Source of the DNA: Sedimentisphaerales bacterium
Lineage (GTDB): Bacteria > Planctomycetota > Phycisphaerae > Sedimentisphaerales > Anaerobacaceae
Reading direction: 5' to 3'
Length of the DNA stretch: 64,000 nucleotides
NCBI GenBank assembly: GCA_016931715.1
Contig: JAFGEF010000107.1
Coordinates: 21,932 to 85,931 of the forward strand
The notes under the pieces are model-generated. The model did no database searches and was not told the DNA's origin. It worked only from the letters and a program-made list of their open reading frames with translations. Numbering within the stretch: position 1 is the stretch's first letter; every line of letters starts with the position of its first letter. This document shows, piece by piece, positions 7,242-62,221 of this stretch. A program made the translations under genes and the position numbers.

Positions 7242-7267
7242 TGTCCTTTTTATCCTTATTTTAACAC

Positions 7268-13865: not shown

Positions 13866-14981
13866 TTAATCATTATAGAAAATAACATTCTTACCGGTTT
13901 GGTCAGGCTCAAAAATATGAATTTTATTGATATCGATATGAATTTTTACTGTTTGATTTACTCTTAAATCAGTATATGGAATCGTACACAGAATGAGTCT
14001 TTCCCCACTCGAATTACGAAGGTACACGTCAGTTTTGTTCCCCACAGGTTCGACTATCTCCACTATTGCAGTGAGTGTATTATCTTCCTGGTTCGCATAA
14101 GGAATCTGTGAGACATTTTCAGGGCGTATGCCCAAAATCATTTCTTTACCCTGATAGCCATTAAGGCAGGTCATCAACGATTGCGGCAGTATTATAGTAT
14201 TATCGTGCGTTACAAAATGTATTTTACTATTGTCAATCTTTACTTTGCCATCGATAAAATTCATCGGAGGAGTCCCGAAAAAACCTGCAACAAACCTGTT
14301 GACAGGTTTTTCATATATCTCCATCGGCTTGCCTGTCTGCATGATTTTGCCGTTATACATTACACAAACCCGCTCCCCTAATGTCATAGCTTCAACCTGG
14401 TCATGAGTGACATAAACAGTCGTGGTTTTTAACTTTTGATGCAGAGTTTTCAGTTCGGTACGCATAGCCAATCTCATTTTAGCATCAAGATTGCTAAGAG
14501 GCTCATCTAATAAAAATGCAGATGGCTTGCGAACGATAGCTTTGCCTAAAGCAACACGCTGTCTCTGGCCGCCCGATAAAGCATGAGGTTTGCGGCGTAA
14601 TAAATCCTCAATTCCGAGTAGTTTAGCTGTTTCTCTGACACGTTCTTTTATATATTTTCCCGGAAACTTGCGCATCTTTAATGCGAAAGCCATGTTCTGA
14701 AACGCAGTCATATGAGGATATAAAACATAATTCTGGAAAACCATAGCAACATCGCGGTTTTTGGCAGCAGTTTCATTGGCTAAAGTATCCCCGATATAAA
14801 TATTGCCGGAATCTGGCTGCTCCAAACCAGCAATAAGGCGAAGCGTAGTAGTTTTACCGCAGCCGCTCGGACCGACAATCACCATGAAGCAGCCTTCCGG
14901 AATTTCAAGAGTAAAATCAGAAACAGCGGCTGTTTCGCCATCAAATATTTTTGTTATATTTTCCAGTAGGATACGAGTCAT
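13866..14981 (-). CDS. ABC importer ATP-binding protein, MalK/UgpC/FbpC type, with a C-terminal OB/TOBE-like regulatory domain
   Basis: Walker A is GPSGCGKTT, the signature is LSGGQRQRVALGKA and Walker B is FLLDEPLSNLD. The extra C-terminal part of about 130 aa is typical of MalK-like importer NBDs. Confidence 0.85.
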   Translation of the reverse strand: MTRILLENITKIFDGETAAVSDFTLEIPEGCFMVIVGPSGCGKTTTLRLIAGLEQPDSGNIYIGDTLANETAAKNRDVAMVFQNYVLYPHMTAFQNMAFALKMRKFPGKYIKERVRETAKLLGIEDLLRRKPHALSGGQRQRVALGKAIVRKPSAFLLDEPLSNLDAKMRLAMRTELKTLHQKLKTTTVYVTHDQVEAMTLGERVCVMYNGKIMQTGKPMEIYEKPVNRFVAGFFGTPPMNFIDGKVKIDNSKIHFVTHDNTIILPQSLMTCLNGYQGKEMILGIRPENVSQIPYANQEDNTLTAIVEIVEPVGNKTDVYLRNSSGERLILCTIPYTDLRVNQTVKIHIDINKIHIFEPDQTGKNVIFYND

Positions 14982-14986
14982 AATTA

Positions 14987-16777: not shown

Positions 16778-16905
16778 AATTTTCCAAGAACCTCTAACAA
16801 AAAGAATCGTGTCGCGGGCATCTTGCCCGCGAAACATTACCATGATGGTAATGCTGTATCTTAAAAATTCATTTTGTTACAGGCTCCAAAATATTGTTTT
16901 CTTTT

Positions 16906-47300: not shown

Positions 47301-48635
47301 AATCCCTCCAACGGAAATACGTCACTGGTTGAGATCGAGTTTCCATGGGATTCAAGTGATTGGATAAGTCCAAAGGGCTACTGGATCAACCCGTCTTATT
47401 GGTCGATGAAGCATTATTCTTATTTCATAGAGCCAGAATATAAACGAGTAACGACCCAATCCAGCAATTACGACCTCATGACATCAGCCTTCATTTCGCC
47501 TGACCATAACAGGCTGGTTACTGTGATAATCAATAGAAGCACAGAGTCCCCCGCCATAGTGACATTGGATGTCAATTCTTTTGACTATGATTACTCTCGC
47601 ATCTATCAGAGCATGGGCGATAATCATTTCGAATCACTTGGCAATCTTCACAATTTACAGGTCACTGTACCGGTATCATCAATAACTACAATTGTTCTGG
47701 ATAAAGAAGTGGAGGTCGGGCAGGCCGGCAATCCTACACCTGCTGACTGCGAAACAGGGCAACCCAAAAATGTGACATTGACATGGACACCCGGAACCAG
47801 CGCAACAAGTCATGCGATCTATTTAGGGACGGATTGTAACGCAGTAGCAACTGCAACACCGGAATCGCCGGAATATCAGGGTACAGTTCCAACATCGAGT
47901 TTTATGCCAGAGTCACTTTCTTCCAGTACGACTTATTACTGGTCAGTAGATGAGATAGCCTATTCGAGTATTTGTCCGGGCCAGGTTTGGTCGTTCAGTA
48001 CCGCGCCAGCCGTGTTACATGCTCATCTTAAGTTTGATGAAAAACGCGGCACCGGAGTCTCCGATTCCACAGGCAACGGCTGGAATGGTACGCTTGTTAA
48101 CGGTGGTCTATGGACATCCGGCAAGTCTGGCAATGCGGCAGATTTGGATGGCAGCAATGACTATGTAAGTCTGCCTGCCGGTGTGGTCGATGGCTTGACC
48201 AATTATACGATTTCCTCATGGGTGCACCTTGATACAGTCAGTACATGGTCCCGAGTGTTTGATTTCGGAAGCGGAACTACAAAAAGCATGTATTTAACCC
48301 CGCAGTGTGGTGGGTCGAATACAGTGCGCTTTGCCATCACTACAGGCGGCTCCAGCGGAGAACAGCAAATAAATGGCACTGCCGCGATTCCGTCTGGTGT
48401 CTGGACTCACGTGGCCGTGACATATCAAGCTGGTACTGGTATTCTTTATATTGATGGAATTGAAGTTGGCCGCAACAATAATATATCCCTTACTCCTTCT
48501 TCGCTCGGCCGCACAATGCAAAACTACATCGGCAAGTCCCAATGGCCTGATCCATATCTCAATGGGCGTGTGGATGATTTCCGCATATACTCCGATGTGC
48601 TGAGCGCTTCTGAAGTAGCTGCATTAGCCAAATAA
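44319..48635 (+). CDS. secreted multidomain glycoside hydrolase: GH43, CBM6, LamG, a clan GH-A (GH30-like) barrel, an FN3-like module and LamG
   Basis: A strong RBS (GAGGAG) lies 7 nt upstream and the signal peptide is MKNVNIILTIIFIIIISFTYASQIRA. GH43 motifs are ADPTAIEWDGRLYVY, WAPCIV and FEASHMHKY. The CBM6-like part runs IRVEAETIAQQSG...WWQF. The two LamG modules are (I/V)FDFGSG...WTHVAVT...DEFRIY and DDFRIY. The clan GH-A catalytic motifs are IQNEPD and FMTEYG. Confidence 0.85.
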   Translation: MKNVNIILTIIFIIIISFTYASQIRADYPVMSQHYAADPTAIEWDGRLYVYCSNDQENTENSGYIMDSIVCFSTDDLKNWTDHGIVFDADDVSWIGTAWAPCIVQNHNKLYLYFGDPYWGIGVVTSTSPTGPFTAPKNGLVVKRSTLSGGTSGADSTWLFDPGVLVDDNGQPYLFFGGGGSNQARYVLLDTNMYDAISSAYPINFPDFFEASHMHKYNGIYYYSYADNYDNNYNNPAPTPGSQIAYMTSSNPTGPFVYQGIALGPPPDNYGNNNHHTFFTFLGQWYCVYHNRYQAGIDGVSTTEHRNICLDRMEYNPDGTIQPVVPTIDGLTQLKCLDPCIRVEAETIAQQSGIKTETCSEGGMNVTSIENGDWIRLRGVDFGTDANSFGARVASTHFSGSIELRLDSLNGTVIGTCFVPNTGDAQTWTTAYCSIYEASGIHDLYLKFKGDQDKNLFNINWWQFDIKYDDDVIIETLPDPIHLYSFNEQGGNRIYDSFGSADGWVINGGVLNNGILNLSKSLSQYVDLPDGLVSSLTDCTIAAWIKLNSVDNWVRIFDFGSGTGVNMFLTPTYWGNALRFGIKNDGTEQNINSTQGPLTTGLWTHVAVTLQGNTGALYVNGVKAGQSNSITWNPGDLGDTTQNWLGRSQWNDPYLDGQFDEFRIYDVAFSANEAAWLFEGGEPREFVSGTTVEKVEINASETHQTIEGLGGAICFYNGWFTAHPCKQEIFDYAFSGLNLSMLRIGNWWRGVNGQDTAIYEIAEAANQRLGHPVPILISSWSPPAYLKSNGEVGNGGTLIKKDGVYDYTGFADYWYDSIQDYIAHGITPAWIGIQNEPDWTAPYDSCRFNPSEAQWDGQNYASFALALDAVHQKLEDGMASPPKLLGPENVGVGYNCLQDFMAEMNTDSFYGIAHHLYNGSIDSSPDGYNMAFNDVLNTTKNLFPGKPRFMTEYGDIDGLIPCANLIHNSLVVEQVSGYNHWSLIWPKNRNDPNDNPSNGNTSLVEIEFPWDSSDWISPKGYWINPSYWSMKHYSYFIEPEYKRVTTQSSNYDLMTSAFISPDHNRLVTVIINRSTESPAIVTLDVNSFDYDYSRIYQSMGDNHFESLGNLHNLQVTVPVSSITTIVLDKEVEVGQAGNPTPADCETGQPKNVTLTWTPGTSATSHAIYLGTDCNAVATATPESPEYQGTVPTSSFMPESLSSSTTYYWSVDEIAYSSICPGQVWSFSTAPAVLHAHLKFDEKRGTGVSDSTGNGWNGTLVNGGLWTSGKSGNAADLDGSNDYVSLPAGVVDGLTNYTISSWVHLDTVSTWSRVFDFGSGTTKSMYLTPQCGGSNTVRFAITTGGSSGEQQINGTAAIPSGVWTHVAVTYQAGTGILYIDGIEVGRNNNISLTPSSLGRTMQNYIGKSQWPDPYLNGRVDDFRIYSDVLSASEVAALAK

Positions 48636-48710
48636 TAGAAATTTATATGAACTCACCACAATCATACACCGTATGCCAGACACTGTTTTTTCTGACACTG
48701 ATTAACACGG

Positions 48711-48807
48711 GATTTACACAGATTTTTTTCTACGTTTGTCATTACCGGTGATGGCTTGGCCATGCCATAGGCAAGACGGGAATCCATTTACTATTCACTA
48801 AAGACTA
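48711..48807. repeat. hairpin-containing intergenic repeat module M2 (left, inverted copy)
   Basis: The core cgggaatccatttactattcacta at 48777-48800 is 24/24 identical to the reverse complement of 59667-59690. The flanking blocks cacagatt, ttttcta and gtttgtcatt are also shared. This copy carries a longer central hairpin (ccggtgatggcttggccatgccataggcaagacgg). Confidence 0.6.
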
Positions 48808-48901
48808 AATATTGTCAGTAAAAAATAGTTGATTATGCTCACAGCTCTTTTAACTAAAAGACAACAACTTATGTCCGAATGTATTATTTTCTACAGTATT
48901 C

Positions 48902-49741
48902 TTATATCGATTTACGTAATTTCCAGCCGCCGATTCCCAAACCGATAAGGCCAAGAATTATAGTGCCTGGAACAGGTGTGAGTATTATTTTGGCGTCTGA
49001 ACTAATAATCCAGAAGTCTGTATCAAGCAACTCCCCTGATGCTAATATCCCGGTTAGATTCCTTAAAGATTCTTCCCAAGGATCACCGGTTATGCTTAAG
49101 ATTTCACCAGAAAAAGGCACTCCATCAACGGCAAAATTAGATCCATTGATTATAATAGTAGAGCTATTATCAAGATAGAATAAATCCCCAAAATTGCCGC
49201 CAGAAATATCAACTATACTGTTATGAAATGTATATATTGGACCATTTATTGTTCCGCCAGAGATATAAACATGGCTATCGTTTGATGTCCATATATTTTG
49301 ACCGACCCATCCGCCGGATAAATATATTTGACTGTAATCAATAGTATTTAGCCCGCCGTTAAGTATTCCACCAGAGATATGAGTCTGGCTGTAGTCTTCG
49401 GCTAATATAGAAGGGAAAGACGGATTTTCTCCAATTATACCACCTGAAATATTGACTTGGCTCCTATGGGCAGGAGCTATTCTTTGAGTAACCTCACCAT
49501 CGACAACATTGAGTAAACTATCTTCGCACATAGTTATAATCGGAATCTTTCCTCCTTTTAACAAATTCACTGTTGTTCCATCTCCTGGTCTGTATTCGTC
49601 AACTAATATGCTGGCAGTAATTTCTGTGTTGATGTTGTAAGTACCACCACCCCAGAGCCACATTACATCAGCAAACAGCGGCGAATCAAAAACAAAAATT
49701 GCCGCCGTAATCGCTATTATTGTCATCCTTGCATTTTTCAT
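48902..49741 (-). CDS. PEP-CTERM-type anchored secreted protein with about 20-aa ISGG repeats (beta-helix-like)
   Basis: The signal peptide is MKNARMTIIAITAAIFVF. There are five repeats with the cores NISGG, HISGG, YLSGG, YISGG and DISGG. The C-terminus TPVPGTIILGLIGLGIGGWKLRKSI combines a PEP-like motif, a TM helix and a basic tail. Confidence 0.7.
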   Translation of the reverse strand: MKNARMTIIAITAAIFVFDSPLFADVMWLWGGGTYNINTEITASILVDEYRPGDGTTVNLLKGGKIPIITMCEDSLLNVVDGEVTQRIAPAHRSQVNISGGIIGENPSFPSILAEDYSQTHISGGILNGGLNTIDYSQIYLSGGWVGQNIWTSNDSHVYISGGTINGPIYTFHNSIVDISGGNFGDLFYLDNSSTIIINGSNFAVDGVPFSGEILSITGDPWEESLRNLTGILASGELLDTDFWIISSDAKIILTPVPGTIILGLIGLGIGGWKLRKSI

Positions 49742-50237
49742 CTTTTTGCCCTTTCATAATTTTCATTTTATTTGGTAATTGAGAATTTATTCAAATACTG
49801 AACTTGTTGTCAACAGAACCACAAAAATCGAAATCAAAATAGGTTTGTGTTTCATTATGTACCTCCTTTCAAAAATAATCACATATATGTTCTTATTTTC
49901 TTATTTCCACATTTTAGCACTAAAACAAGAAATGTTAAGATATTTTTCGTTTATTGGCATTTTTATAGTAAATATTTTGGCATCGCCATACGCCGTATAT
50001 ATGGCAATTGTTTTTCTTGTTGTTTTTTATGAAAATAGGAAGGAATAAGAAGTTTTGAATTAACTAACAACTAAAGACTAAAAACTATTGATTGCCACAT
50101 AGGGCACAGAAAATAAAGAGATTTTAGCCATAAGCAAAAACATTGCGCTTTGCGCAATAAATAGCAGTCAAACAGGCCGCAGAGAGAAAATACCTGATAA
50201 ATATTGATAATTATGTATGAATTGTGCTTTATTATTG

Positions 50238-50588: not shown

Positions 50589-50912
50589 ATGAAAAGAGTA
50601 GTTGACTACGATGAACTCGCAGGCGAGTTAAATAGTTTCGAAAATAAAGTAGCCCTTCATCCAAATTGGTTATTTAGAGGTCAGACAAATAGCGATTGGA
50701 CTTTGAAACCTTCTTTTACAAGAATAGCGGAAAAAAGGAGGCTTAGCAGAAATCAAGCTCTCCAATTAGAGCGTGAAGCTGTGCATAAGTTCTCTATAAG
50801 CGGAAGCAAGCTTCTGCCGCTAAAGTATACGATCGACTTGACCCTATCGCGTTTCAAGTCTCAGAATGGTGCTGGCATTGATTTTGGGAGATTATTGGTA
50901 GTAAGACAATGA
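50589..50912 (+). CDS. FRG-domain protein, apparently a truncated N-terminal fragment (possible pseudogene)
   Basis: The stretch HPNWLFRGQTNSDWTLKPSFTR is the eponymous FRG motif. The ORF stops after 107 aa, before the region that normally follows in FRG proteins of about 250 aa. Confidence 0.5.
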   Translation: MKRVVDYDELAGELNSFENKVALHPNWLFRGQTNSDWTLKPSFTRIAEKRRLSRNQALQLEREAVHKFSISGSKLLPLKYTIDLTLSRFKSQNGAGIDFGRLLVVRQ

Positions 50913-51006: not shown

Positions 51007-51774
51007 ATGACAGTAGACGAATATCTGCAAAAATTGGTTAATAAATATCGAGTTCCAGCTGTTGCACAAGGAACGCCAGAATTTAAAGCAGCAAACTCAA
51101 TATATCCAATTATACAAAGATGGGCAGGCAACCAATTAAGAGAAGTTACTTTTTCTGGCTCTAATGCCAAAGGCACAGCTATACGTGGGAGAACAGATGT
51201 AGATTTATTTATATCCTTAAAATCGGACACAAATGAAACCTTAAAAGAAATATTTAACAGTCTATATAATTATATGGTTCAGAATGGATATTCTTCCACA
51301 AAGAAACAACATGTTTCTATTCATATAGTTCATAGTGGTATTGAAGTTGATTTAGTTCCTGCAAAACACTTCGGTGGTAATACCGAGGACCATTGGCTTT
51401 ATGTGAATAGACCAAACAGAGAAAGAATAAAAACTAACGTTAATGAACACATTAACTTGGTAAGGGATTCGAACCGGACAAATGAAATAATCCTAACAAA
51501 AATCTGGCGACTAAATCATAACTTGGATTTCCCGTCGTTTTATCTGGAGCTTGTTGTTATCGAAGCGTTGAAATATAAACGTGTAGGACTTTCAGAAAAT
51601 TTCTTATCAGTTCTGGAATATCTATCAAACAGTTTTATCTCGGCTCGTTTCATTGATCCAGCGAATACAAACAATATCATTTCTGATGATCTCGCAGACA
51701 TTGAAAAGAAAGCCATTGCCAGTCAGGCAAAGAAAAGCAAGGCAGAACGGTTATGGGAAAGTATTGTATGGTAA
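51007..51774 (+). CDS. Pol-beta superfamily nucleotidyltransferase, OAS/CD-NTase/SMODS-like
   Basis: The stretch FSGSNAKGTAIRGRTDVDLFISL gives the GS...GT...DxD signature, and the third acidic residue is in IEVDLVPA. The helical C-terminal half contains TKIWRLNHNLDFPSFYLELVVIEAL and IDPANTNNIIS, as in OAS/CD-NTase-type enzymes. Confidence 0.7.
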   Translation: MTVDEYLQKLVNKYRVPAVAQGTPEFKAANSIYPIIQRWAGNQLREVTFSGSNAKGTAIRGRTDVDLFISLKSDTNETLKEIFNSLYNYMVQNGYSSTKKQHVSIHIVHSGIEVDLVPAKHFGGNTEDHWLYVNRPNRERIKTNVNEHINLVRDSNRTNEIILTKIWRLNHNLDFPSFYLELVVIEALKYKRVGLSENFLSVLEYLSNSFISARFIDPANTNNIISDDLADIEKKAIASQAKKSKAERLWESIVW

Positions 51775-52493
51775 AACCTAAGAATCAAATCGATATCAGA
51801 GAAATATTTTTAGGTATGCAACGGCAGATGCGCACAAAGCTTACTTTGAACAGAAAAATATTGACTCACCCTGTTGTAAAAGGTGATGTAAGTGAAGCGG
51901 AATGGATTGACATGCTTTCATCGTATTTGCCAAGCCGCTATCGAGTTGATAAGGCATTTGTTATTGATTGCGACGGCATTGTGAGCGATCAAATTGACAT
52001 TGTTATTTATGACCGCCATTATTCGCCTTTTATTCTCAAACAAAACGGCTCAACGTATATCCCTGCCGAAAGTGTTTATGCAGTGATCGAGGTCAAACCA
52101 ACTTTGACTGCGAAAAATATTGACTACGCCGCACATAAAGCCTATTCTGTACGAAGACTTAAACGCACAACTGCACGAATTGTTCATGCAGCTGGAGAAA
52201 TAAAAAAGCCTAAAAAACCATTCAATATTCTGGCGGGAATTTTAACAATAGATGGTAAATGTACCGATGCCTTGAAGACAAAACTTATGAAACTGCCCAA
52301 GAAGCAGACTTTGCAATTCGGGTGTTCACTTGACTATGTTTCATTCTGGTTAAAGAAGAATAAATTTGAGAAGAGTTTGCAGACAGACGCACTGATTTTC
52401 TTTTTTATTAATTTACTATCGGAGCTTCAGCAATTAGGGACGGTGAGTGCAATTAATTTGAAAGCATATATAAAAACCTTTAAGGAAAAATAA
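51768..52493 (+). CDS. DUF6602-like PD-(D/E)xK (restriction-endonuclease fold) protein
   Basis: The stretch THPVVKGDVSEAEWIDMLSSYLPSRYRVDKAFVIDCDGIVSDQIDIVIYDRHYSPFILKQNGSTYIPAESVYAVIEVKPTL matches my memory of the DUF6602 core (E...YLP..Y...D..G..S.Q.DIVIYD...P.E.VYAVIEVK). The start is either ATG 51753 or ATG 51768. The latter overlaps the NTase stop as ATGGTAA. Confidence 0.65.
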   Translation: MVKPKNQIDIREIFLGMQRQMRTKLTLNRKILTHPVVKGDVSEAEWIDMLSSYLPSRYRVDKAFVIDCDGIVSDQIDIVIYDRHYSPFILKQNGSTYIPAESVYAVIEVKPTLTAKNIDYAAHKAYSVRRLKRTTARIVHAAGEIKKPKKPFNILAGILTIDGKCTDALKTKLMKLPKKQTLQFGCSLDYVSFWLKKNKFEKSLQTDALIFFFINLLSELQQLGTVSAINLKAYIKTFKEK

Positions 52494-52543: not shown

Positions 52544-54328
52544 ATGGAACCGGAAAAACTAAAACCATACAAATCGTTTTTATTTTGTACGATTGCAGAT
52601 ATTCCTGTCACAACAGTAAGTGATGATATTGAGGAACTGGTAAAAGGAAAAGAAGGTACTGTTCTTTCAAGAAATAATCTTGAACCAGAAGGTTTGGAAA
52701 TATCATTATTTACTTATATTGATAAAATAACACCTCCTTGGAGTAATGATGAATCTGTAAAAGATATTATTAATGAATTAGTAGTAGTAGTTAAAAAGAA
52801 TAAATATATTGCTATTTATTCTTCAAATACATCTATTCGAGATACTATCAGAAGTTTTATATCTGGCACAAAGAAGAAAAAAGAAAATAAATTTACTTAT
52901 CTAAAACTTATTCCGCGCGGTTTACTAAACGCTGCTTTTATTAAAGGACAAACTCAAACATTATGGCTGTCAGGAACACATAGACGAACCGCTTCAAAGG
53001 TGGATAATAAAATTATCAACGGTCTTGATTTGCGATACGCTTTAGATCCGTTGGGTGATCAGTCATTTTTCTTTACTGCCGCAAGATGCAAGCTCCCGAC
53101 TAATATATTTAAAAATCTTATTGGTATATCGCCCAGAAAAAGTTCTCTATGGGCGGGTTTTTCTAAACAATGGGATGATTTTATTGTTAGTACAAAATTA
53201 CTATTAAACCTTTTAGAAGATACCAAAAAGCCTAATCAGAATCCATTACCAATATTAGCTGAAAGTATTAATGGATTAAATGACTTAGAAAATATTGGTA
53301 AATGTTATGATGCTGCAATTATTCCCCCCATATTGCTTGCAGAAACAGATATAGACTCTAATGATCGAAAAGATGCTGAAATGTGGAATGAATTGCATTT
53401 TGAAATAGTTTCGACTGAAAGCTCATTGAATTTTAAGGCGGAAGTTTCGTTATTTGAAATTGATAAGTTAAATAACATCGGAACATTTTCATTTACGTTT
53501 GATGATTTGACTATGTTACCACAGGTTGAATACAAAATTGAAGGTGAAGCAGCATCATCGGAGAATCAAGAAATTTTTAACAAAGCTCTTAATATGTTAC
53601 AAACTAATAAGAATTGGCTAAAAGTATGGTATGATTCAGGACATGTCATTGCAGAAAGAGAAATCTTTTTGCACCGGTTTCGTGATATGCCTTTTATGCA
53701 TTTTGAAGGACAAGCTTTAATTAATATCTCTATTAAAAATGAAAAGCCGCCTTATCCGATCGAGGATAATATTGGAAAGCATAAGTCACTTTTTTGTTAT
53801 GTTAAGAATACACTAACGAAAGGTTGGTTGACTTGTGATGATGGATCAATGGAAATGGCTGATTTTATTCATTTTAATAAAATCACGGATAAACCAACAA
53901 TCTCTCTCATTCATGTAAAGGCTTCCAAAAAAAATGAACCAAAACGTAATATGGCGGTATCTGATTATGAAATAGTTGTTAGCCAGGCAATTAAGAATAT
54001 TCGATATTTGAGCACAGATAATTTATTGGAAGGCTTAACAGCCGGGTTGAAAAAGAAGATACAAAATGCTACATGGAAGGATGGGAAAAAGCAGAGTAAT
54101 GGACGCAAAGGGATGCTAAAAGAAATTGAAAAATGTGGAACCAACATTTCTTATAAAGTTATTGTTTTTCAACCGCGTGCTCGTATTTCAGAAATTGAAA
54201 AGACCAGAGTAAATAAGAAGGGAAAATCATATAAGATTTTGCAACAACTTGATACTTTATTATTGGGAGCCAGTCATGATTGTCAATCTGCAGGAGCAGA
54301 ATTTATAGCTTGGATAGATGGTAGTTGA
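52544..54328 (+). CDS. 594-aa hypothetical protein with a C-terminal endonuclease-fold-like motif
   Basis: AGGA lies 7 nt upstream of the ATG. About 420 aa at the N-terminus have no recognisable family. The C-terminus reads CDDGSMEMADFIHFNKITDKPTISLIHVKASKK...VSDYEIVVSQAIKNIRYL and is reminiscent of sporadically distributed TIGR04141/DUF6119-type proteins (tentative). Confidence 0.55.
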   Translation: MEPEKLKPYKSFLFCTIADIPVTTVSDDIEELVKGKEGTVLSRNNLEPEGLEISLFTYIDKITPPWSNDESVKDIINELVVVVKKNKYIAIYSSNTSIRDTIRSFISGTKKKKENKFTYLKLIPRGLLNAAFIKGQTQTLWLSGTHRRTASKVDNKIINGLDLRYALDPLGDQSFFFTAARCKLPTNIFKNLIGISPRKSSLWAGFSKQWDDFIVSTKLLLNLLEDTKKPNQNPLPILAESINGLNDLENIGKCYDAAIIPPILLAETDIDSNDRKDAEMWNELHFEIVSTESSLNFKAEVSLFEIDKLNNIGTFSFTFDDLTMLPQVEYKIEGEAASSENQEIFNKALNMLQTNKNWLKVWYDSGHVIAEREIFLHRFRDMPFMHFEGQALINISIKNEKPPYPIEDNIGKHKSLFCYVKNTLTKGWLTCDDGSMEMADFIHFNKITDKPTISLIHVKASKKNEPKRNMAVSDYEIVVSQAIKNIRYLSTDNLLEGLTAGLKKKIQNATWKDGKKQSNGRKGMLKEIEKCGTNISYKVIVFQPRARISEIEKTRVNKKGKSYKILQQLDTLLLGASHDCQSAGAEFIAWIDGS

Positions 54329-54340
54329 GTTAGGATTTGT

Positions 54341-55066
54341 ATGGGAAAGCAACGATTATTAGTAAGTATTAGAGGTAAAAAGGAAGCTTTAGCAGCAATA
54401 AAAGGTGGTGCTCAAATTGCTGATGTCGAATTTCCGGCTTCGGCCTTAGGGACACCGTATCCGTTAAATATTCGAGTAGTTAGAAATGCTATGCCCAAGC
54501 ATATCAAAGTTGCAACCAATATCGGCGAGGAACAGTCTGGTCGTTCAAGTGCATGTCAGGCAGCTTTAGGTGTGGCGTTGGCGGGGGCAGATATTGTCAA
54601 ATTAGGCCTTGCTAAAATGTCTCTTGGTGAAGCAAAAGAGTTCGGGCCGGCACTCGTTAGAACGGTCAAGAAATGGTTTCCGCGAAAGCAATGTATTCCA
54701 GCATTATTTGCTGATGAACGTCTGGCCAATTGGTATATTGACCCTATAAAACAAGGACCTGAATTAGCAGAACTTATGAAAGCAGATGGATTATTGGTGG
54801 ATACTTTTGATAAATCACTTGGAAAAGGTCTGATGGATTATTATACAATTGGTGATATCAGAAAATTTGTAAAGAAATGCCATGATAGGAATATTGAGGC
54901 ATGGTTGGCAGGAAGTATTGGTAAAGATGAACTTCCTGATTTGTGGGAAGCTGGGGTTGATGTTGTTTGTGTTCGTGGTGCTGCTTGTAAGTCGGGTACA
55001 GGACCGGGAAGATTTGGAGAAGTTGATACAAAACTTGTGAAAGAACTAATTAGTACTATTCCATGA
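54341..55066 (+). CDS. MfnB/DUF556-like class I aldolase TIM-barrel ((5-formylfuran-3-yl)methyl phosphate synthase family)
   Basis: Supporting blocks are LLVSIRGKKEALAAIKGGAQIADVEFPASALGTPYP, GADIVKLGL, LLVDTFDKSLGKGL, EAWLAGSIG and VDVVCVRGAAC. Their order and spacing match the family pattern. Confidence 0.6.
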   Translation: MGKQRLLVSIRGKKEALAAIKGGAQIADVEFPASALGTPYPLNIRVVRNAMPKHIKVATNIGEEQSGRSSACQAALGVALAGADIVKLGLAKMSLGEAKEFGPALVRTVKKWFPRKQCIPALFADERLANWYIDPIKQGPELAELMKADGLLVDTFDKSLGKGLMDYYTIGDIRKFVKKCHDRNIEAWLAGSIGKDELPDLWEAGVDVVCVRGAACKSGTGPGRFGEVDTKLVKELISTIP

Positions 55067-55890
55067 CAGCTGAAGAAAAGAACCAGAATAAAGGATATTT
55101 GAATGGTGCTCGAGTTTATCTTTCGGGTCCCATGGATTTTGTTGCTTCTCGCGAAGAAGAAAAAAAGAATGGATGGCGGATTCGTGTAAAACAATTCCTC
55201 CAGTCCTACGGAGCAATAGTTTTTGATCCATGGGAAAAGCCTAAAGTTCGTGGCCTTCATGAATATGGCAAAGAAGGTGTTGTTTCAATCAATGTACGCG
55301 AGAATTGGACATTTGAAGAAAGTAGAAAGGGTGCTGAAATACGTTCTGAATGTGCTCAAAAATTTTATGAAACCATGCATATAGATTTAAGAATGGTTGA
55401 TATAAGCGATTTTGTAATTGCATATTGCCCGACAAATATATATAGCGTTGGTACTCCTCATGAAATAATCACTGCAAGAAACCAGCAAAAGCCGGTTTTA
55501 TTTATTAGTACTCCGGTTGTATTTCCTGCTTTGGAGAATTTGAAAACTCATCTTAATAGCTCTGGAGATAAAGCTGGTTTGCAGTTATTAAACGAATTAG
55601 AAAATCAGGTTCCAATTAAACAAAATCCCAAAGGGATACCAAGTTTATGGTATATGCCTTTGATTGGAAGTAACAACTTTTTTGATAGTTTTGGTTTTTC
55701 TAAATATGCTGAAAAATATAAATGGTCTAAGTCTCCTTCAGATGATCTTGAACAGCATAATCCACCAAAGCGACCATTATTAGATTTTCTCAGGCAATTA
55801 AACATGAAGCTTCCACAAAAATGGAATATAAATAAAAATAAAATTGAAAAAGATGATGACTGGCTCTTGCTTGATATAAAGCAGGTATGA
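55063..55890 (+). CDS. nucleoside 2-deoxyribosyltransferase-like (NDT/LOG/DNPH1-superfamily) protein with a C-terminal extension of about 110 aa
   Basis: Supporting blocks are ARVYLSGPMDF, VFDPW and DLRMVDISDFVIAYCPTNIYSVGTPHEIITARNQQKPVLFIS. Together these give the YxxGP start, the acidic D, and the GTxxE(I/L)xxA...KPV pattern. The start is an ATGA overlap with the preceding gene. Confidence 0.55.
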   Translation: MTAEEKNQNKGYLNGARVYLSGPMDFVASREEEKKNGWRIRVKQFLQSYGAIVFDPWEKPKVRGLHEYGKEGVVSINVRENWTFEESRKGAEIRSECAQKFYETMHIDLRMVDISDFVIAYCPTNIYSVGTPHEIITARNQQKPVLFISTPVVFPALENLKTHLNSSGDKAGLQLLNELENQVPIKQNPKGIPSLWYMPLIGSNNFFDSFGFSKYAEKYKWSKSPSDDLEQHNPPKRPLLDFLRQLNMKLPQKWNINKNKIEKDDDWLLLDIKQV

Positions 55891-55915
55891 ATAATCTATC
55901 AAATTCTTTTAAAGA

Positions 55916-57928
55916 CTATACAGATTTTTCCACAATTTCTTCTGATAAAGTATAATTATAATACTGAAGACCTGTTTCAGATTCCTCTATAGTATCAGCA
56001 TTACCAACCGATGCAGACAAAGGTTTATCACACTTTATTATAGCAATATCAATATGACACTTATAGTTCTGGCAAGTATTATTACGCATAGATAATAAGT
56101 CATATAGATTGGAAGAATTTTCTTTAAATGTATTATTAAAATCAAAAATAAGATATAAACCAACTGTAGGCCTACCTTCAATCTTATCTTTTAGCATGTG
56201 TTGAACTAATTCTTTATCAATCCCTTGTTTCCAGTTACCGGAATCTTTCTTAAGCTCTATCCATAACTTATTTGGTTGTCGCTCAATGAGATAGTCACAT
56301 TGACCAAGTCCGCTATCTCCCTTTGGAGTTAATATTGCTCCTCGTTTACGAACATAGTGATCAAGTTGAAGTCTCATAAGAGCATCAATATTTTTTTCCT
56401 TGACAGGAATATTTTTCTCATACCAAAGTGCATTCCAAAAACCACCGAGGCGAATATCTTTTACCAAAGTTTTAAGAAAATCATGAATTCCTTCGAGAAG
56501 ACCTTTATTTCCTTTTTCAAAAGGTGCATCAATACTCTGTTGTGTTATTATAACTGTCTGAGTAGTATTCGTTACTTCATATAGGTGACTGCTAATGAGC
56601 GGCTCTAATCCCGATCTTTCAGGTAATTGTTTTATTCTTTCCATTAAATCATCGTGCATATTAACAATCTGGAATACTATTCCAGCATCTTTACTATGTT
56701 TATCACGTTTTTCTTCGTATCTCCACCCTCGCAATGCTTGGGCTCTACAACAAAATCGGCATCCATCCTTGCTATCAACAAGGGTCAGGTTAACAAAATT
56801 TATTACCCGCTTATGTTCCTGATTACGAAGTTTTATAGTAACTAGCTCATTCTTAAATCCTGTGCAATCTTCTATATAATCATCCCATTTGATATGGACA
56901 CCATTACCTTGGATAGCAAAATCAACAACAGTTCCATATAAATCTACTGTATTTTCTTCATACACACAATTGATTATGGCATTCCATCCGTTACCATTTC
57001 TTCGAAGTGGCCGAGGATCTCTTCCGCATAAACAAGGGATTAATTCAGATAAAGGACTTTGAAGTAAACGTCTTGTATCGATCATATCTCTATGTAATGC
57101 ATTTAAAATCTTATAAGCATCTTCGAAATATGATGAAATTAAAGATGGACGATTACAACTTAATCTATCTATGCCTGTCCTTTGTATGAGATTTGGTAAT
57201 TTTGATAAAACTCTTCGAACGTCGTATGTTTCCTGTTGTAGAGCTATTTCGGGATTACGTCTTACTGCAATATCAATCAGCTTTATTGTCTCAAGGATAT
57301 AGCGTGGCACTAATTCTTTTTTTACAGAGAGGATAGACTCGAGGATTTCTGACAGAAATACACTTGCTGATTTATTAACAGTCTCCGTATTGTCCGGTGA
57401 GAGGAGTGTCCCAATCCTTGAAACATATCCCGTAACAGCTCTCCCGAAATGTTCGGTTTCATTATAGAGACCTTCAAGACGAAGAAGTCTAAGGTAGCTT
57501 GGTAGGATCTTTTCATTAACATATTGTAAATCCGATATCCAACCTTCTAATACTTTTTGTGGATTGAGAATGCGGTTGTAATTTGGATTTTTTTGGGCCA
57601 ATACTTCCTCACCTCCAAGTCCATATTTCCATGTATCAAAAAGAATGGGGAATATCTTTTCGCACAATTCCTCTGCTTCGGGTATAAATGCTAATGATTT
57701 CATTATTTGTATAGCCCTTGCGCAAAATAAAGGACAATCTGGCCATTTAGCTTTATCCGTTAGTTCTTGAGCTTTATTGATAATACGAGCCTTCACACTT
57801 GATGTGAGTTTGCCTCCATGCAGAATGTATTCAATCTCTTCTAACATATTATGTCCTATTGTATTAACACAGGTGTGATTAAACCATTCGCTATGTGTAT
57901 CAATTGGTGTATTTTGTTTTCCTAACAT
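55916..57928 (-). CDS. 670-aa hypothetical protein: helical N-domain, PilZ-like barrel signature and PD-(D/E)xK-like C-terminal domain
   Basis: GGAG lies 9 nt upstream of ATG 57928. R306-P-L-R-R310 and D336-F-A-I-Q-G341 match the PilZ motifs. D545...E558-L-K560 (CDYLIERQPNKLWIELKK) matches a nuclease core. No family is assigned with certainty. Confidence 0.55.
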   Translation of the reverse strand: MLGKQNTPIDTHSEWFNHTCVNTIGHNMLEEIEYILHGGKLTSSVKARIINKAQELTDKAKWPDCPLFCARAIQIMKSLAFIPEAEELCEKIFPILFDTWKYGLGGEEVLAQKNPNYNRILNPQKVLEGWISDLQYVNEKILPSYLRLLRLEGLYNETEHFGRAVTGYVSRIGTLLSPDNTETVNKSASVFLSEILESILSVKKELVPRYILETIKLIDIAVRRNPEIALQQETYDVRRVLSKLPNLIQRTGIDRLSCNRPSLISSYFEDAYKILNALHRDMIDTRRLLQSPLSELIPCLCGRDPRPLRRNGNGWNAIINCVYEENTVDLYGTVVDFAIQGNGVHIKWDDYIEDCTGFKNELVTIKLRNQEHKRVINFVNLTLVDSKDGCRFCCRAQALRGWRYEEKRDKHSKDAGIVFQIVNMHDDLMERIKQLPERSGLEPLISSHLYEVTNTTQTVIITQQSIDAPFEKGNKGLLEGIHDFLKTLVKDIRLGGFWNALWYEKNIPVKEKNIDALMRLQLDHYVRKRGAILTPKGDSGLGQCDYLIERQPNKLWIELKKDSGNWKQGIDKELVQHMLKDKIEGRPTVGLYLIFDFNNTFKENSSNLYDLLSMRNNTCQNYKCHIDIAIIKCDKPLSASVGNADTIEESETGLQYYNYTLSEEIVEKSV

Positions 57929-58017
57929 TATAATTCTCCAGTTAAGATATTAAAGAGGAACTATAACCTGTAATATTCTTATAATCCTTATAAGATGATT
58001 TATTCATATTAAACGTA

Positions 58018-58989
58018 TCATTTGTTACTAATTGTTAGTTTTCTATTCACAATAAAGGTATTATTTGAAAGTTTTGGAGGATGATCTCGGAAACACAATT
58101 CAAGGTAAAAATCACTACTTGGTTTTCCATAAAACCAAAGCATCTCTTTAGCCAATTTTCTATCACTATGACGAACTGGAATGATACAGATACTTCCATC
58201 CATAACCTCGACAGGAGTTCCAAGAGTTTGAAATAGAACTATGTCGTATGCTTCTGGCGCTATATGAGCTTTATTTGGTTGGATATGAGTATAAAATAAT
58301 TCTTTTGCCTCTCTTGTAGCATATACAGTGTCAAAAGTTGCAATTTCATTAAGTAAACGAGTATAGCTGGACACAGATAACCATGGTTGTTGCCCAATAA
58401 GATAATCATAAGTTGCACCGTCAAATTTAAGATTAAGAACAAACATATCCTTTGCTTTCGGAGCTAATGGAGGTAGAAGAAAAGATGTAAATGAAGGTTC
58501 CTTACCTCTATGATTTTCAGGTTTTAAGTCTATCTTATGTTGTTCATTCATAAAGCAACCTTCTGGACCCGCTATTGAATATTCGATTGGTTGTTGAGCT
58601 ATAGACAGACAATTTACTCTTGGATAAAATAGAATCGATTTATCATCATTTGTATTTTGAATGATTCGGTCAGAATACAAACGATTTAGAAGATTCAAAG
58701 CTTCATTTTCAGTCTCAAAATCAAATGGTTCCAGCCATCCTTGCACATCTCCACGGTGGACTACGCGAGCACGCATCGGAATCGTATAAGGATTTTCAAG
58801 AAACAGAATTAAGGTGATATATACTTCTCTATCTTCGTTTTTAAATACCAATCCTTCAGTCACTTGTCGTGCTATCAATGAGGGACATGTTGGCCATTCA
58901 GAAGTGAGGACAATGCAGTCAGATCCACAATTGCAACTGTACTTTTTATGATTGGTGGTATTTAAGTGAGTATTATTTTTTTGATTCAT
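58018..58989 (-). CDS. 323-aa hypothetical protein (Cys-rich N-terminus), upstream partner of the 670-aa gene
   Basis: GGAG lies 10 nt upstream of ATG 58989. The N-terminus is YSCNCGSDCIVLTSEWPTCPS. The gap to the next gene on the same strand is 89 nt. No family is recognised. Confidence 0.5.
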   Translation of the reverse strand: MNQKNNTHLNTTNHKKYSCNCGSDCIVLTSEWPTCPSLIARQVTEGLVFKNEDREVYITLILFLENPYTIPMRARVVHRGDVQGWLEPFDFETENEALNLLNRLYSDRIIQNTNDDKSILFYPRVNCLSIAQQPIEYSIAGPEGCFMNEQHKIDLKPENHRGKEPSFTSFLLPPLAPKAKDMFVLNLKFDGATYDYLIGQQPWLSVSSYTRLLNEIATFDTVYATREAKELFYTHIQPNKAHIAPEAYDIVLFQTLGTPVEVMDGSICIIPVRHSDRKLAKEMLWFYGKPSSDFYLELCFRDHPPKLSNNTFIVNRKLTISNK

Positions 58990-59520
58990 AAATATAACTC
59001 CAAAAATAACATTTAATATAATATAAATACAGATTATTTGGACCCATCTGAAGCAAGTTAAAATTATTGCGGTAGTCTATGTATTTATGGTTTAAGAGGG
59101 AATTAGAATTTAACACAATTAGTTGTTCAGATGATATATTAAGAATTCTGAAAGTAAAATGGCGATAGAATTTCAGCGAAACCAAGGATAGTAGAGGTGA
59201 AAAAAAATTAATGATTCCACAATGAGTATTCTTCATTCTCTGTCCTTGTATTTTTACTTTTCTTTTTTAAAACAGACAATAATGCTAATCTAATCCTACA
59301 TCGATTAGCTATCTACAAAAATAAATCTTTTCCGAATATTACATTGTAATACAATTATGTAAGATTTGTCAATTGTGGTAACTACGTATTTTAATACGAA
59401 AAATATTTGTTTTTGAGCTAAAAACAAGCATTAGTAGAAATTTATTATTCTTCTTAGAAAAAGCATATGAAAATATAGTCCGAATCCTTTTTATATGGCG
59501 TTAGGGTATTTTTTTGATTT

Positions 59521-59561
59521 TTATCCGTGTGTATTGGTGTTAATTTGTGGTTTTGAATTAG
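59521..59561. repeat. short intergenic repeat module M1 (right, inverted copy)
   Basis: Its reverse complement, ctaattcaaaaccacaaattaacaccaatacacacggataa, aligns with 50442-50475 at 26 of 34 positions. Confidence 0.35.
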
Positions 59562-59660
59562 TATTTAGTCTCAAGCTGTTAGTGGTTATATTTCCGCCTG
59601 CGGTGGATCTTCGACTTTGCGTGCTTTGCGGCTTTGCGGGAAATTTAGTCGTTAGTCGTT

Positions 59661-59733
59661 TGTCGTTAGTGAATAGTAAATGGATTCCCGCCTTCGCGGG
59701 AATGACAAACTTAGAAAATAATCTGTGAAAATC
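59661..59733. repeat. hairpin-containing intergenic repeat module M2 (right copy)
   Basis: The sequence is tgtcgttagtgaatagtaaatggattcccgccttcgcgggaatgacaaacttagaaaataatctgtgaaaatc. The central hairpin is cccgc-cttc-gcggg. It is the reverse complement of the 48711-48807 element, with a 24/24 identical core. Confidence 0.6.
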
Positions 59734-59980: not shown

Positions 59981-62221
59981 TTATATTCCGTATGCCAGGC
60001 GTTGTTTTTTCTGGTATTTCCGGTATGATTTATACTGCTGTTTAAAATAGCCGCCTGTTCTTGCTCTTGCCGCAAAAAGGACACAGCCGACTATGCTTGA
60101 GCTTGCGCCTTTTATTTCGCGTATTGTTCTCTGGGCAGCGCCGGTATTGGTATCATCTGCACAGAAGACCAGCAGCGTCGCATCCGCAAGCGAGGCTAAA
60201 ACTGTAGAATCGCTTACGAGAAGTACCGGAGCGCCGTCGATTATGATATGGTCATAATTCCTTCGCAATTCTCTGACAAGCTCATCCATTCTTATGCTTC
60301 CGAGCAGGTCGGAAGGATTAGCCGGCATCGGGCCGCAATCGATTATGCTGAGTCCCTCGATGCCGCTTGATCTGATGGCATTCTCTGTCTTGCACTGGTG
60401 CATCAGAACGCTGCTCAGGCCGAAATTGAAATGCTGCGATTCAAGGCTTTCGAGACTTTGTCCTTCTACTCTCGGGAAAATTACATGCAGATTTGGATTC
60501 CTGAAATTAGCGTCAATGAGCAGAACTTTTTTGCCTGAAGCTACGAAGACAAGCGCAAGATTGACTGCGGTTGAAGTTTTTCCCTCGCCGCTCATTCCGC
60601 TCGCAACGAGAATTGTCTTTAGTGACTCAAGCGGGCCTGAGAGCATGAGATTTGCCCTTAATCGGCGATAAGATTCACTTATCATCGAATAAGGGGCCTG
60701 CCTGACAATCTGACGAAGCTCGACGCCGCGAGAAAGTTTTTCTTCGGACACATCAGGAATGACCGACAGAAGAGGAATTCGCAGGAATCTCGAAACCTCG
60801 CTCGGGGTAGCTATCTGGTCATTTGTAAGCTCACCCATAAATGCAAGCGATATACCGAGTAAAAGGCCCAGCATTGTTAATGTAGGCAGCCACATATACC
60901 ACTGTCGTGATAAAATCATTTCCAGAGGCGCCGGAGCCGGACCAACAGATTGAATCTTCGGAATTTCCGGGTCGTTAAGCAGTGATGTCACTTTCTCGAT
61001 TTGCTCATCGATTTTTTTGAGCATATCCAGTCTCTCATCACGTATCTTCAGTTGTTTGTCAAATTCGATGCGTGCGGTATCAAGATCCGTTTTCTTTTTC
61101 TGGGCTTCAGCACGAAGATCGCTGAGCTTATCGTATCTTTCCTGCAGGATGTACAAGCCATCTCTTGCGTTTTCAAGATTTGCCAGACGTGTCTGATTGG
61201 CTATCTCTTCCTTTCTTAAATCCCGCTGTTTAAGAGTCTGCGCTACCATCTCCCTGACATGAATAACATCCCTGTGGCCTTCTCCGAACCTGGTTCTAAG
61301 AGCGGATAACTGAGTCTGCTGTTCAGTCAACTGCTGAGCAAGCGAAAGCATAATCGGGTCTTTTTCAACCAATATTTCGATTTGCTCGTTAATAGGACCA
61401 TCCGCCAGCTCCTGAAGATTTTTAATATCAGCTTTTAATTGCTCCAAACCCATATCGAGGTTAATTTGCTCAAGCTCTATGCTTTCGAGAATTTGAGTAA
61501 CGGTATGGCGAAAATTGCGGGTCTCCGGCATCTCAAGATCCAATATGCCGGCTTTGTTTCGTATTGCCGATAATCCATCATTTGCATTATCCAGGTCTTT
61601 TTGAATGGACTTTCGCTGGTCATTGAGCGGCTTCAGCTTTTGTGTGACTTCTTCTTTTTCGACACCCATTTGCTTGGCAAGAAATAGTTCCACCATTTTA
61701 TTGACTATAACCGCGGACTCCTCGGCATTACCGGCTGTCATCGATAACTCGACAAAATCGCTGTCTCTTTGCGGAAAAGCAACGAAGGAATTTTTTAAAG
61801 ACCGTACTAATTTGACAATGTCACTGTCTTTGTCCTGGTACCATTTAGTCTTTCTTATCGTATCATTGTCCAAAAGATATTCCAACATGCTTTGCTGCTT
61901 GATTAAATTTGCGATAGACCTGCGATGTGCGTAAAGGATATCCTTTTGCGGCTGCACGCCTCCAATCACCCATGGATCGGATGGCGTCGGAGAAAGAATC
62001 TTGATATATGTAGTTGCATTATATTTCGGGTAATATTTCTGTAAAACCTTCCAAACCCCGAAACCTGCGATAAAACCAAATACTGTCAGGATAAATATCA
62101 GGAATATATGACGCCGCAAAATCCCACAAACCTCCCTGGCAGTCAGTGAGGCAGAATCCTGTGACCTCATACCCGCCGGCACAGACATTCTGTTGGATAT
62201 TAGTGGGCTTTTCTCAACCAT
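59981..62221 (-). CDS. polysaccharide co-polymerase / tyrosine autokinase (Wzc/GumC/EpsG-like)
   Basis: The N-terminal TM is IFLIFILTVFGFIAGFGV, followed by a long coiled-coil periplasmic region and a second TM (WLPTLTMLGLLLGISLAF). The P-loop is SGMSGEGKTSTAVNLA, with VLLIDANFRNP and IIIDGAPVL. The tail YFKQQYKSYRKYQ is Tyr-rich. Confidence 0.8.
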   Translation of the reverse strand: MVEKSPLISNRMSVPAGMRSQDSASLTAREVCGILRRHIFLIFILTVFGFIAGFGVWKVLQKYYPKYNATTYIKILSPTPSDPWVIGGVQPQKDILYAHRRSIANLIKQQSMLEYLLDNDTIRKTKWYQDKDSDIVKLVRSLKNSFVAFPQRDSDFVELSMTAGNAEESAVIVNKMVELFLAKQMGVEKEEVTQKLKPLNDQRKSIQKDLDNANDGLSAIRNKAGILDLEMPETRNFRHTVTQILESIELEQINLDMGLEQLKADIKNLQELADGPINEQIEILVEKDPIMLSLAQQLTEQQTQLSALRTRFGEGHRDVIHVREMVAQTLKQRDLRKEEIANQTRLANLENARDGLYILQERYDKLSDLRAEAQKKKTDLDTARIEFDKQLKIRDERLDMLKKIDEQIEKVTSLLNDPEIPKIQSVGPAPAPLEMILSRQWYMWLPTLTMLGLLLGISLAFMGELTNDQIATPSEVSRFLRIPLLSVIPDVSEEKLSRGVELRQIVRQAPYSMISESYRRLRANLMLSGPLESLKTILVASGMSGEGKTSTAVNLALVFVASGKKVLLIDANFRNPNLHVIFPRVEGQSLESLESQHFNFGLSSVLMHQCKTENAIRSSGIEGLSIIDCGPMPANPSDLLGSIRMDELVRELRRNYDHIIIDGAPVLLVSDSTVLASLADATLLVFCADDTNTGAAQRTIREIKGASSSIVGCVLFAARARTGGYFKQQYKSYRKYQKKQRLAYGI

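Follow-up and report, generated by a model that had tools for sequence, protein, structure and literature searches.

The gene pair and its locus

Two adjacent genes, here called A and B, lie on the minus strand at positions 55916 to 58989 of a 64,000-nucleotide stretch of DNA from a Sedimentisphaerales bacterium (Planctomycetota; Phycisphaerae; contig JAFGEF010000107.1)—we refer to this whole stretch as the window, and positions are counted from its first letter. The original prediction, made from the sequence alone, described the two genes as a convergent module of orphans that completes a defence island. Here we address how strictly the two genes are paired, what their proteins are built from, which genes surround them, and how they may act together; homologous loci (L) and proteins (P) are numbered where they must be told apart. 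The features of the pair are as follows.

58018-58989, minus strand: gene A, 323 amino acids, a beta-rich protein of an uncharacterised family (open reading frame, ORF)
55916-57928, minus strand: gene B, 670 amino acids, a conserved core plus a putative C-terminal effector module (ORF, homologues, alignments, AlphaFold2 (AF2) model)
58998-59001, minus strand: GGAG ribosome-binding site of A, 8 nt 5' of the ATG at 58989 (read from the sequence)
57936-57939, minus strand: GGAG ribosome-binding site of B, 7 nt 5' of the ATG at 57928 (read from the sequence)
57929-58017, minus strand: spacer between A and B, 89 nt (read from the sequence)
55891-55915: gap of 25 nt between the convergent stops of a neighbouring Ndt-like gene (55890) and of B (55916)
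59343-59372, minus strand: best sigma-70-like promoter match 5' of A, TTGACA-18-TACAAT, 11/12, about 350 nt before the ATG

The layout that had been predicted—two minus-strand genes, each with a GGAG site, 89 nt apart, and 25 nt between the facing stops—was reproduced from the sequence in every coordinate. Neither the spacer nor the convergent gap contains a terminator-like hairpin, and a spacer that reads in this way is compatible with co-transcription of A and B. The promoter site is a consensus match only, and sites of this kind are no more numerous in the region than shuffled sequence would lead one to expect. We found no conserved RNA or DNA element upstream of the pair, and Rfam gave no match; a supposed "gene" of 111 amino acids that precedes A in L003 and L006 was discarded, as the DNA of these loci is 84% identical there and nothing at that position is common to other loci. 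The pair sits in AT-rich DNA, as had been proposed: the GC fraction is 0.32-0.36 over roughly 49-60 kb and 0.43-0.48 on either flank.

Conservation and pairing

Among 5.8 billion protein clusters, A and B have four close homologues each. An exhaustive search with a hidden Markov model (HMM) gathers 86 representative clusters in the A family, nearly all of about 300 amino acids, and a metagenome scan added 18 further loci. A profile search with the B alignment brought no additional homologues among the limited number of candidates that it scores. The named homologues come from genome bins of Planctomycetota and Phycisphaerae, and the remainder from metagenome contigs. The two proteins are thus rare, yet the term orphan no longer suits them: besides these relatives, a Pfam domain family (PF28130) is found on B. 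When a single genome per species, 185,579 species in all, was scanned with the A alignment and pattern, no relatives emerged.

Wherever the arrangement can be assessed, the two genes travel together. In 20 of 20 distinct loci of the close family, the window included, a homologue of B directly follows the homologue of A in the same order; this count takes in every distinct close-family locus with DNA downstream of A, searched by tblastn and a local hmmsearch. The paired loci are the window, L001, L002, L004-L007, L009-L011, L014-L021, L023, L024, and L027, at 31-58% identity. In one lineage the two are fused: P0026 (996 amino acids, four contigs) consists of a B-like protein followed by an A-like domain. 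The original prediction had held that the two genes would be no functional module if they were not co-conserved elsewhere; with the order kept throughout and a fusion in one lineage, their status as a functional two-gene module is very well supported.

The association extends to a remote relative. The remote A homologue P0042 is followed by a 448-amino-acid protein that corresponds to the core of B without an effector module; hhalign joins this protein to the B core at E=1.2e-4, in register at the invariant R..R, D, and R sites described below. This effector-less pair (L110, 159-6352) has a phage-type integrase gene on one side and, on the other, a convergent gene for a class III nucleotidyl cyclase (Guanylate_cyc)—a neighbour that is suggestive in view of a possible nucleotide-binding site in the B core.

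The C-terminal module of B and its exchange

The C-terminal part of B is where the original prediction had seen an endonuclease-like core.

55979-56521, minus strand: DUF8371, or PD-(D/E)xK-like nuclease module, B residues ~470-650 (alignment A9)

The predicted D...ELK core is borne out as a conserved motif with a putative nuclease function. Within the segment CDYLIE...IELKK lie D545, E558, and K560; all 10 sequences of alignment A9, at 30-51% identity, share these three residues and E511. The order E...D...ExK is the signature of PD-(D/E)xK nucleases. Profile matches are weak and point the same way: Pfam PDDEXK_3 matches one of ten members (4.7e-4), and among PADLOC models Cas4_II matches 3 of 18 B homologues (0.018) and PDC-M29B gives a weak match too. 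A phage family that carries no annotation, phrog_30194, matches B residues 486-640 at 1.3e-6. The AF2 model has a predicted local distance difference test score (pLDDT) of 25-65 for residues 440-670, so that the order of its elements, which fits the alpha-beta-beta-beta-alpha-beta core fold, is unreliable. A PD-(D/E)xK-type nuclease is the best-supported reading of this module.

Precomputed Pfam annotation places DUF8371 (PF28130) on B, P0002, P0003, the B partner in L006, and P0026, and not on P0004 or P0005. The family occurs only on proteins with this first type of module, and we therefore infer that DUF8371 is that module. It is present in the window and ten other loci; its carriers are the window, L001 (two copies), L006, L007, L015, L016, L020, L021, L024, and L027.

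Other homologues keep the core and carry something else at this end. In P0004 the module is replaced by a PNP_UDP_1 domain (Pfam 9.3e-7), which matches the PADLOC model for the 'PN-superfamily' effector of CBASS, the cyclic oligonucleotide-based antiphage signalling system, at 2e-15. PNP-domain effectors act as ATP nucleosidases in CBASS Cap17 and in Detocs DtcC (bioRxiv 10.1101/2023.01.24.525353). A third module, which has no detectable relatives, ends the proteins of L004, L009, and L011, and the module of L017 and L018 is different again. When the 18 B-type homologues were run against PADLOC, the swapped effector modules found matches and the core did not. An enzymatic end that can be swapped on, or detached from, a constant core is the hallmark architecture of prokaryotic immune proteins.

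The conserved core of B

Upstream of the exchangeable end, B consists of two domains.

57026-57901, minus strand: helical-repeat domain resembling tetratricopeptide repeats (TPR), B residues ~10-301 (AF2 model, 18-sequence alignment)
56624-57025, minus strand: beta domain, B residues ~302-435 (alignment A7, AF2 model)

The helical domain is common to all B homologues, with W15, C65, I73, W100, L127, W130, Y145, and L149 invariant. AF2 models it with pLDDT values mostly of 75-95 (residues 16-300), and the beta domain with values of about 70-89 (residues 309-430). The top Foldseek matches of B are TPR and designed repeat proteins at E values near 1e-3, but their TM scores are 0.1-0.3 and the deviations exceed 12 Å; no Pfam TPR family matches the N-terminal domain. 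The Pfam scan and the AF2 model revealed no NTPase or STAND domain in B, and the core as a whole has no match in PADLOC, NCBIfam, PDB sequences, or Pfam-A. The PDB was searched with single sequences and also by profile (A, beta domain, nuclease module, third module), and only chance matches or designed-repeat artefacts came back.

The beta domain holds the only invariant polar residues of the entire core: three arginines and one aspartate (R306, R309, R400, and D336), with G343 near-invariant. They belong to a motif of the form R-x-x-R(R)...D-h-[SCAT]-x-x-G-x-G, in which the arginines stand just before the first strand and the aspartate follows them by 27-30 residues. B of the window reads R306-x-x-R309-R310, then 26 residues, then D336-F-A-I-Q-G341-N-G343. 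Across the family D336 is invariant, glycine occupies position +5 in most sequences, and the serine position is filled by S, C, A, T, or D.

This arrangement recalls the PilZ domain, whose signature is RxxxR ... D/NxSxxG. Like the c-di-GMP receptors YcgR, BcsA, and PA4608, B has an arginine-rich motif, a candidate D-h-S/C-x-x-G turn, and a small beta domain followed by a helix, and the PilZ segment of E. coli BcsA (TVQDFSDGGLGIKI) resembles the segment of B (TVVDFAIQGNGVHIK). The arginine spacing of B differs from these receptors, being RxxR and not RxxxR—R310 supplies the latter in the window, but it is unconserved—and the profile statistics are not significant. Pfam PilZ (PF07238) matches one of 17 members, at E=0.006 with a score short of the gathering threshold; compared by hhalign with four aligned PilZ sequences (YcgR, MotI, BcsA, PA4608), the domain has its DxSxxG region in register at a probability of 1.4% (P=0.035), and a comparison with a two-sequence profile gave nothing (probability 0.1%). 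The beta-domain profile found no PilZ protein in the PDB, and BcsA structures that contain PilZ rank 5, 8, and 13 in the Foldseek search of B. The negatives among these searches are weak, because true PilZ proteins fail to find one another by phmmer. We treat the likeness to PilZ as an open lead and not as a finding.

An alternative account of the pair starts from this domain. The beta domain would be a PilZ-like or other receptor for a nucleotide messenger, and a small molecule, not protein-protein sensing, would switch the nuclease on; the messenger could come from A, from the two enzymes encoded next door (4-HFC-P-synthase-like, hereafter HFCP-like, and Ndt-like), from the host, or from the phage. 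The confinement of the invariant polar residues to one small domain fits this account, as do the motif parallel, the one Pfam PilZ match, the register of the hhalign alignment, and the BcsA structures among the Foldseek matches; so do the class III cyclase gene beside the remote pair and the recurrence of two nucleotide or sugar-phosphate enzymes beside homologous pairs. The weak statistics and the RxxR spacing speak against it, and A carries no nucleotidyltransferase or cyclase signature in the Pfam scan or the PDB profile search, while most pairs lack the HFCP-like and Ndt-like genes. On balance we think a messenger receptor of this kind unlikely. A full messenger pathway, in which the Arg/Arg/Asp/Arg site of B would bind a nucleotide-derived messenger and switch on whichever effector is fused or adjacent, be it nuclease, PNP domain, or another, is improbable; within it, the messenger would be supplied by A, acting as an enzyme of new fold with its invariant E45, H78, and Y248, or by the HFCP-like and Ndt-like enzymes. 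Were it true, it would be a form of defence that dispenses with the known synthases (CD-NTase, Cas10, TIR, and class III cyclase).

Protein A

In a 40-sequence alignment of the A family, F294 is invariant together with E45, H78, and Y248; C25, Y105, R124, Y194, and D249 are near-invariant, and R75, R79, and R108 are mostly conserved. The original prediction had drawn attention to a cysteine cluster, and the sequence CNCGSDC...CPS is indeed present, with cysteines at positions 19, 21, 25, and 35. As a family feature it does not hold: the conserved cysteines are C25 (39 of 40 sequences) and C127 (33 of 40) only. A metal site in the cluster was rejected for the family, because of its cysteines only C25 is conserved.

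The AF2 model of A is poor (pLDDT 46.7); residues 26-190 resemble a beta sandwich. Foldseek with this model returned only generic beta-sandwich matches at E values above 0.02, from which no fold was assigned. A has no match in Pfam, PADLOC, NCBIfam, PHROG, or PDB sequences, and the 40-sequence profile found nothing in the PDB.

Neighbourhoods of the homologous pairs

Homologous pairs adjoin genes for TIR proteins, a PD-T4-6-like kinase, RelA_SpoT, a GajB-like UvrD helicase, IetS, a ParE/antitoxin pair, and integrases. Together with a complete CBASS 3.4 kb from the pair in the window, described below, these neighbours uphold the defence-island setting that had been predicted.

One of these contigs deserves separate mention. 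L001 carries at 13121-17716 a second B paralogue, P0002 (846 amino acids, with a 150-amino-acid N-terminal extension), which lacks its own A gene and comes after genes for a 231-amino-acid protein and a 457-amino-acid TIR-domain protein (Pfam TIR_2 2e-4; PADLOC TIR effector 3.8e-13). The same contig holds a PD-T4-6-like kinase-HD protein, a RelA_SpoT protein, and UvrD fragments, and forms a dense defence island.

The distribution also bears on whether the genes are housekeeping genes, a DNA-repair or regulatory pair, or decaying and non-functional. Some homologues lie among metabolic genes and no defence model matches the pair, as such an explanation would have it. The occurrence of the genes is sporadic and rare, with no match in the species-level genome scan, and in the window they lie in an AT-rich island; both ORFs are intact, the motifs are kept across 25-58% identity, and the effector is modular. 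The original prediction had named confident matches to housekeeping functions as evidence against it, and neither protein matches any such family in the Pfam, PADLOC, NCBIfam, PHROG, and PDB searches. We consider a housekeeping or decaying pair highly improbable.

The genes next door in the window

On the plus strand, a CD-NTase gene (51007-51774; PADLOC cyclase 1e-85, Pfam SMODS) overlaps by 22 nt a gene for the endonuclease NucC (51753-52493; PADLOC 2.5e-88, Pfam DUF6602). These two genes are a minimal, complete CBASS; in PADLOC and Pfam scans the adjacent ORFs gave no match to HORMA/TRIP13 or Cap2/Cap3. Upstream, at 50589-50912, a 107-amino-acid ORF covers no more than the N-terminal portion of an FRG domain (Pfam 6.3e-5; PADLOC PDC-S15 1.3e-8), whereas the FRG profiles that it matches span 250-420 positions; the ORF is probably what is left of a further candidate defence gene after truncation.

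The CBASS is followed by a three-gene block at 52544-55890, which encodes a 594-amino-acid protein and the two enzymes listed here.

54341-55066, plus strand: 4-HFC-P-synthase-like (HFCP) gene (Pfam 1.5e-40)
55063-55890, plus strand: Ndt-like gene, 275 amino acids, distantly nucleoside-2-deoxyribosyltransferase-like (Pfam)

The 594-amino-acid protein has a weak PADLOC match to PDC-S71 only (8e-13), and we found no verified nuclease motif in it. Of the three nuclease-like cores predicted within about 6 kb, the other two gain support: the DUF6602-like protein is NucC, and the D...ExK motif of the 670-amino-acid protein is conserved. The five plus-strand genes had been taken for one operon; as a unit this does not survive, being a composite of the CBASS and a separable block.

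Whether the pair depends on these neighbours can be judged from the other loci. Homologues of the CD-NTase, NucC, the FRG ORF, and the 594-amino-acid protein were found in none of the other A/B loci (about 20). HFCP-like and Ndt-like genes do recur beside A/B homologues, in four loci and in four arrangements: in the window HFCP precedes Ndt and the two are convergent with B; in L016 all four genes share a strand and run A, B, Ndt, HFCP, with one gap of 6 nt and one overlap of 19 nt; in L024 HFCP is convergent with B and Ndt divergent from HFCP; and in L027 (with L028 and L029) a DUF6119 gene, HFCP, and Ndt precede the B-A fusion on one strand. In L027 the 532-amino-acid DUF6119 protein takes the position of the 594-amino-acid protein (block 4688-7829). 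This recurrence is more than chance, yet the genes are not needed by the pair: HFCP and Ndt are missing from about two thirds of the pairs with enough flanking DNA.

The block also occurs elsewhere. In L030 (Pirellulales, 6440-9795) homologues of the 594-amino-acid protein (61% identity), HFCP (87%), and Ndt (76%) stand together without a CBASS and without A or B, and L031 (Syntrophales) has DUF6119, HFCP, and Ndt genes without the pair. Homologues of the Ndt-like protein were found in 290 species genomes of many phyla; among the best 80 of these 290 loci (L030-L109; 55-76% identity; hosts in Verrucomicrobiota, Planctomycetota, Acidobacteriota, Proteobacteria, Chloroflexota, and others) almost all lack HFCP, and neither A nor B is nearby in any of them. 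On these grounds a specific tie of the Ndt-like gene to the pair was rejected. Because the block occurs without the pair, and none of these 80 Ndt loci has A or B close by, we regard HFCP and Ndt as separable from the pair, a block with which it often shares islands.

These loci also decide how to weigh a larger unit, in which the pair would be half of a five-gene system with the genes for the 594-amino-acid, HFCP-like, and Ndt-like proteins on the opposite strand. The four shared loci, the one-strand order A-B-Ndt-HFCP of L016, and the DUF6119 protein in the place of the 594-amino-acid protein would suit such a system. Set against this are the majority of pairs without HFCP or Ndt, the trio without the pair in L030, and the best-80 Ndt loci, mostly without HFCP and all without A or B; moreover, a kinship of the 594-amino-acid protein with DUF6119 was rejected, as BLASTP detected no similarity between them. 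We judge a five-gene system to be improbable. The pair is independent of the CBASS, and none of the genes next door is required by it.

Two properties of the block stand on their own. The Ndt-like protein is conserved to an unusually high degree for its sporadic distribution, and a gene of about 390 amino acids often comes after it. The block also joins an MfnB-type aldolase, here found apart from methanofuran biosynthesis, to a nucleoside-deoxyribosyltransferase-like enzyme, which is a puzzling combination.

Borders of the island

Repeats bound the AT-rich region on either side. One of them, 31 nt long, occupies 59983-60013 and forms the 3' coding end of a 746-amino-acid gene (59981-62221); a direct copy with 84% identity lies at 48664-48694, and a degenerate third copy at 49988-50018. 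The copies sit where the GC content changes, at both edges. In addition, a 36-nt palindromic element resembling repetitive extragenic palindromes (REP-like; GTCATTCCCGCGAAGGCGGGAATC...) flanks the island as an inverted pair at 48773-48808 and 59659-59694. The 31-nt repeats are compatible with an insertion of about 11.3 kb at the end of the 746-amino-acid gene, with an att-type duplication, and the pair would therefore sit at the right-hand end of the insertion; the degenerate copy hints that one insertion followed another. The ORFs of 46-64 kb include no recognised integrase gene.

Several further features lie near these borders. The REP-like element regions span 48715-48810 on the plus strand and 59630-59730 on the minus strand, and the element gives rise to a spurious ORF at 59495-59728 ('IPAFAGMT'). 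A 1438-amino-acid secreted protein (44319-48635) is encoded just outside the left edge, and just inside it lies a 279-amino-acid protein (48902-49741) with a short hydrophobic stretch and then basic residues at its end; both are unrelated to the pair.

An alternative reading of the pair is addiction: A might be the antidote of a nuclease toxin B, in the manner of a toxin-antitoxin (TA) module, and serve to stabilise the island with no sensing of phage. The strict pairing with the smaller gene first, the fusion, the toxic-looking effector, the repeat-bounded AT-rich island, and the ParE/antitoxin pair that adjoins one homologue are all in keeping with this. Typical labile antitoxins are unlike A, which has about 320 amino acids, is highly conserved, and has many invariant polar residues; likewise, the conserved non-catalytic core of about 450 amino acids in B would be needless for a plain toxin, and B cores without an effector exist. 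Pure addiction therefore seems to us unlikely, and it overlaps with a defence role, because many TA modules are themselves defence systems.

A candidate defence module

Our leaning, a modest one, is that A and B form a self-contained anti-phage module of the abortive-infection type, belonging to a family not yet described and armed here with a predicted nuclease effector. The observations that support the module are the strict pairing, the fusion, the exchange or loss of the effector around a constant core, the conservation of the catalytic motif, and the defence neighbourhood. The immune role would follow from architecture, effector exchange, and neighbourhood; since A and the B core match no model of PADLOC v2, the word defence rests here on context and architecture. 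A and the B core are new in that they fall outside the annotated defence and protein families searched.

In the mechanism that we propose, the core of B, with its helical repeat and Arg/Arg/Asp/Arg beta domain, would be the regulatory or sensing part, and the C-terminal module would be the effector—here a PD-(D/E)xK-type nuclease. A would be an obligate partner that binds B and either silences the effector or delivers the trigger; on infection, the restraint would be lifted and the nuclease would cut DNA. We infer the physical complex of A and B, the nuclease activity, the trigger, and the defence phenotype.

Several results weigh against a dedicated defence module. A partner of the B type was undetectable beside two still more remote A homologues (L112 and L113), the pair is absent from the viral contig and plasmid records searched, and several homologous loci, such as L002, lie among ordinary metabolic genes. 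The PADLOC scan that the original prediction had proposed finds the adjacent CBASS; for A and B, PADLOC-DB v2.0.0 (2023) gives no family at E<=1. The candidate nuclease, moreover, is called from a motif and sub-threshold profile matches, with low AF2 confidence for the domain.

If the anti-phage reading is correct, the pair would represent a defence system built from two families that have no characterised relatives, in a poorly studied group of bacteria. Its architecture is clean—a constant core, an effector that can be exchanged or detached, and a partner that is fused in one lineage—and it would offer a tractable case of how a non-NTPase core of helical repeat and beta barrel controls a nuclease. 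The invariant arginine-rich site and the recurrent link to two sugar-phosphate or nucleotide enzymes are leads to a possible new ligand.

Comparison with known systems

In the literature searched, neither DUF8371, nor defence systems of a PilZ-effector kind, nor a defence role of 4-HFC-P synthase is the subject of a paper. Pfam DUF8371 (PF28130) is a domain of unknown function and covers the C-terminal module only, not the system of A and B.

The pair draws on the same effector repertoire as CBASS (NucC, Cap4, Cap17) and Detocs (DtcC), with a PD-(D/E)xK-type module here and a PNP domain in a homologue. In contrast to these systems, the pair yielded neither a CD-NTase, SAVED, or STING domain nor another known receptor domain; a CD-NTase gene adjoins it in the window only, and never in the roughly 20 other loci. 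Nothing in CBASS or Detocs corresponds to the partner protein A.

Avs and other STAND proteins are single-chain, with TPR sensors and swappable effectors, and Shedu has a DUF4263 nuclease. B likewise combines a helical repeat with an exchangeable effector, here a candidate nuclease of the PD-(D/E)xK superfamily; the shared logic would be that of a fixed sensor bearing a variable weapon. However, the pair has no PADLOC match to Avs or Shedu, and it needs a second conserved protein of 320 amino acids.

Type II toxin-antitoxin modules resemble the pair in having two co-directional genes, of which the upstream one plausibly restrains a toxic downstream enzyme. A and B differ from them in being far larger; B has a conserved non-catalytic core of 450 amino acids, and versions of it exist that carry no effector at all.

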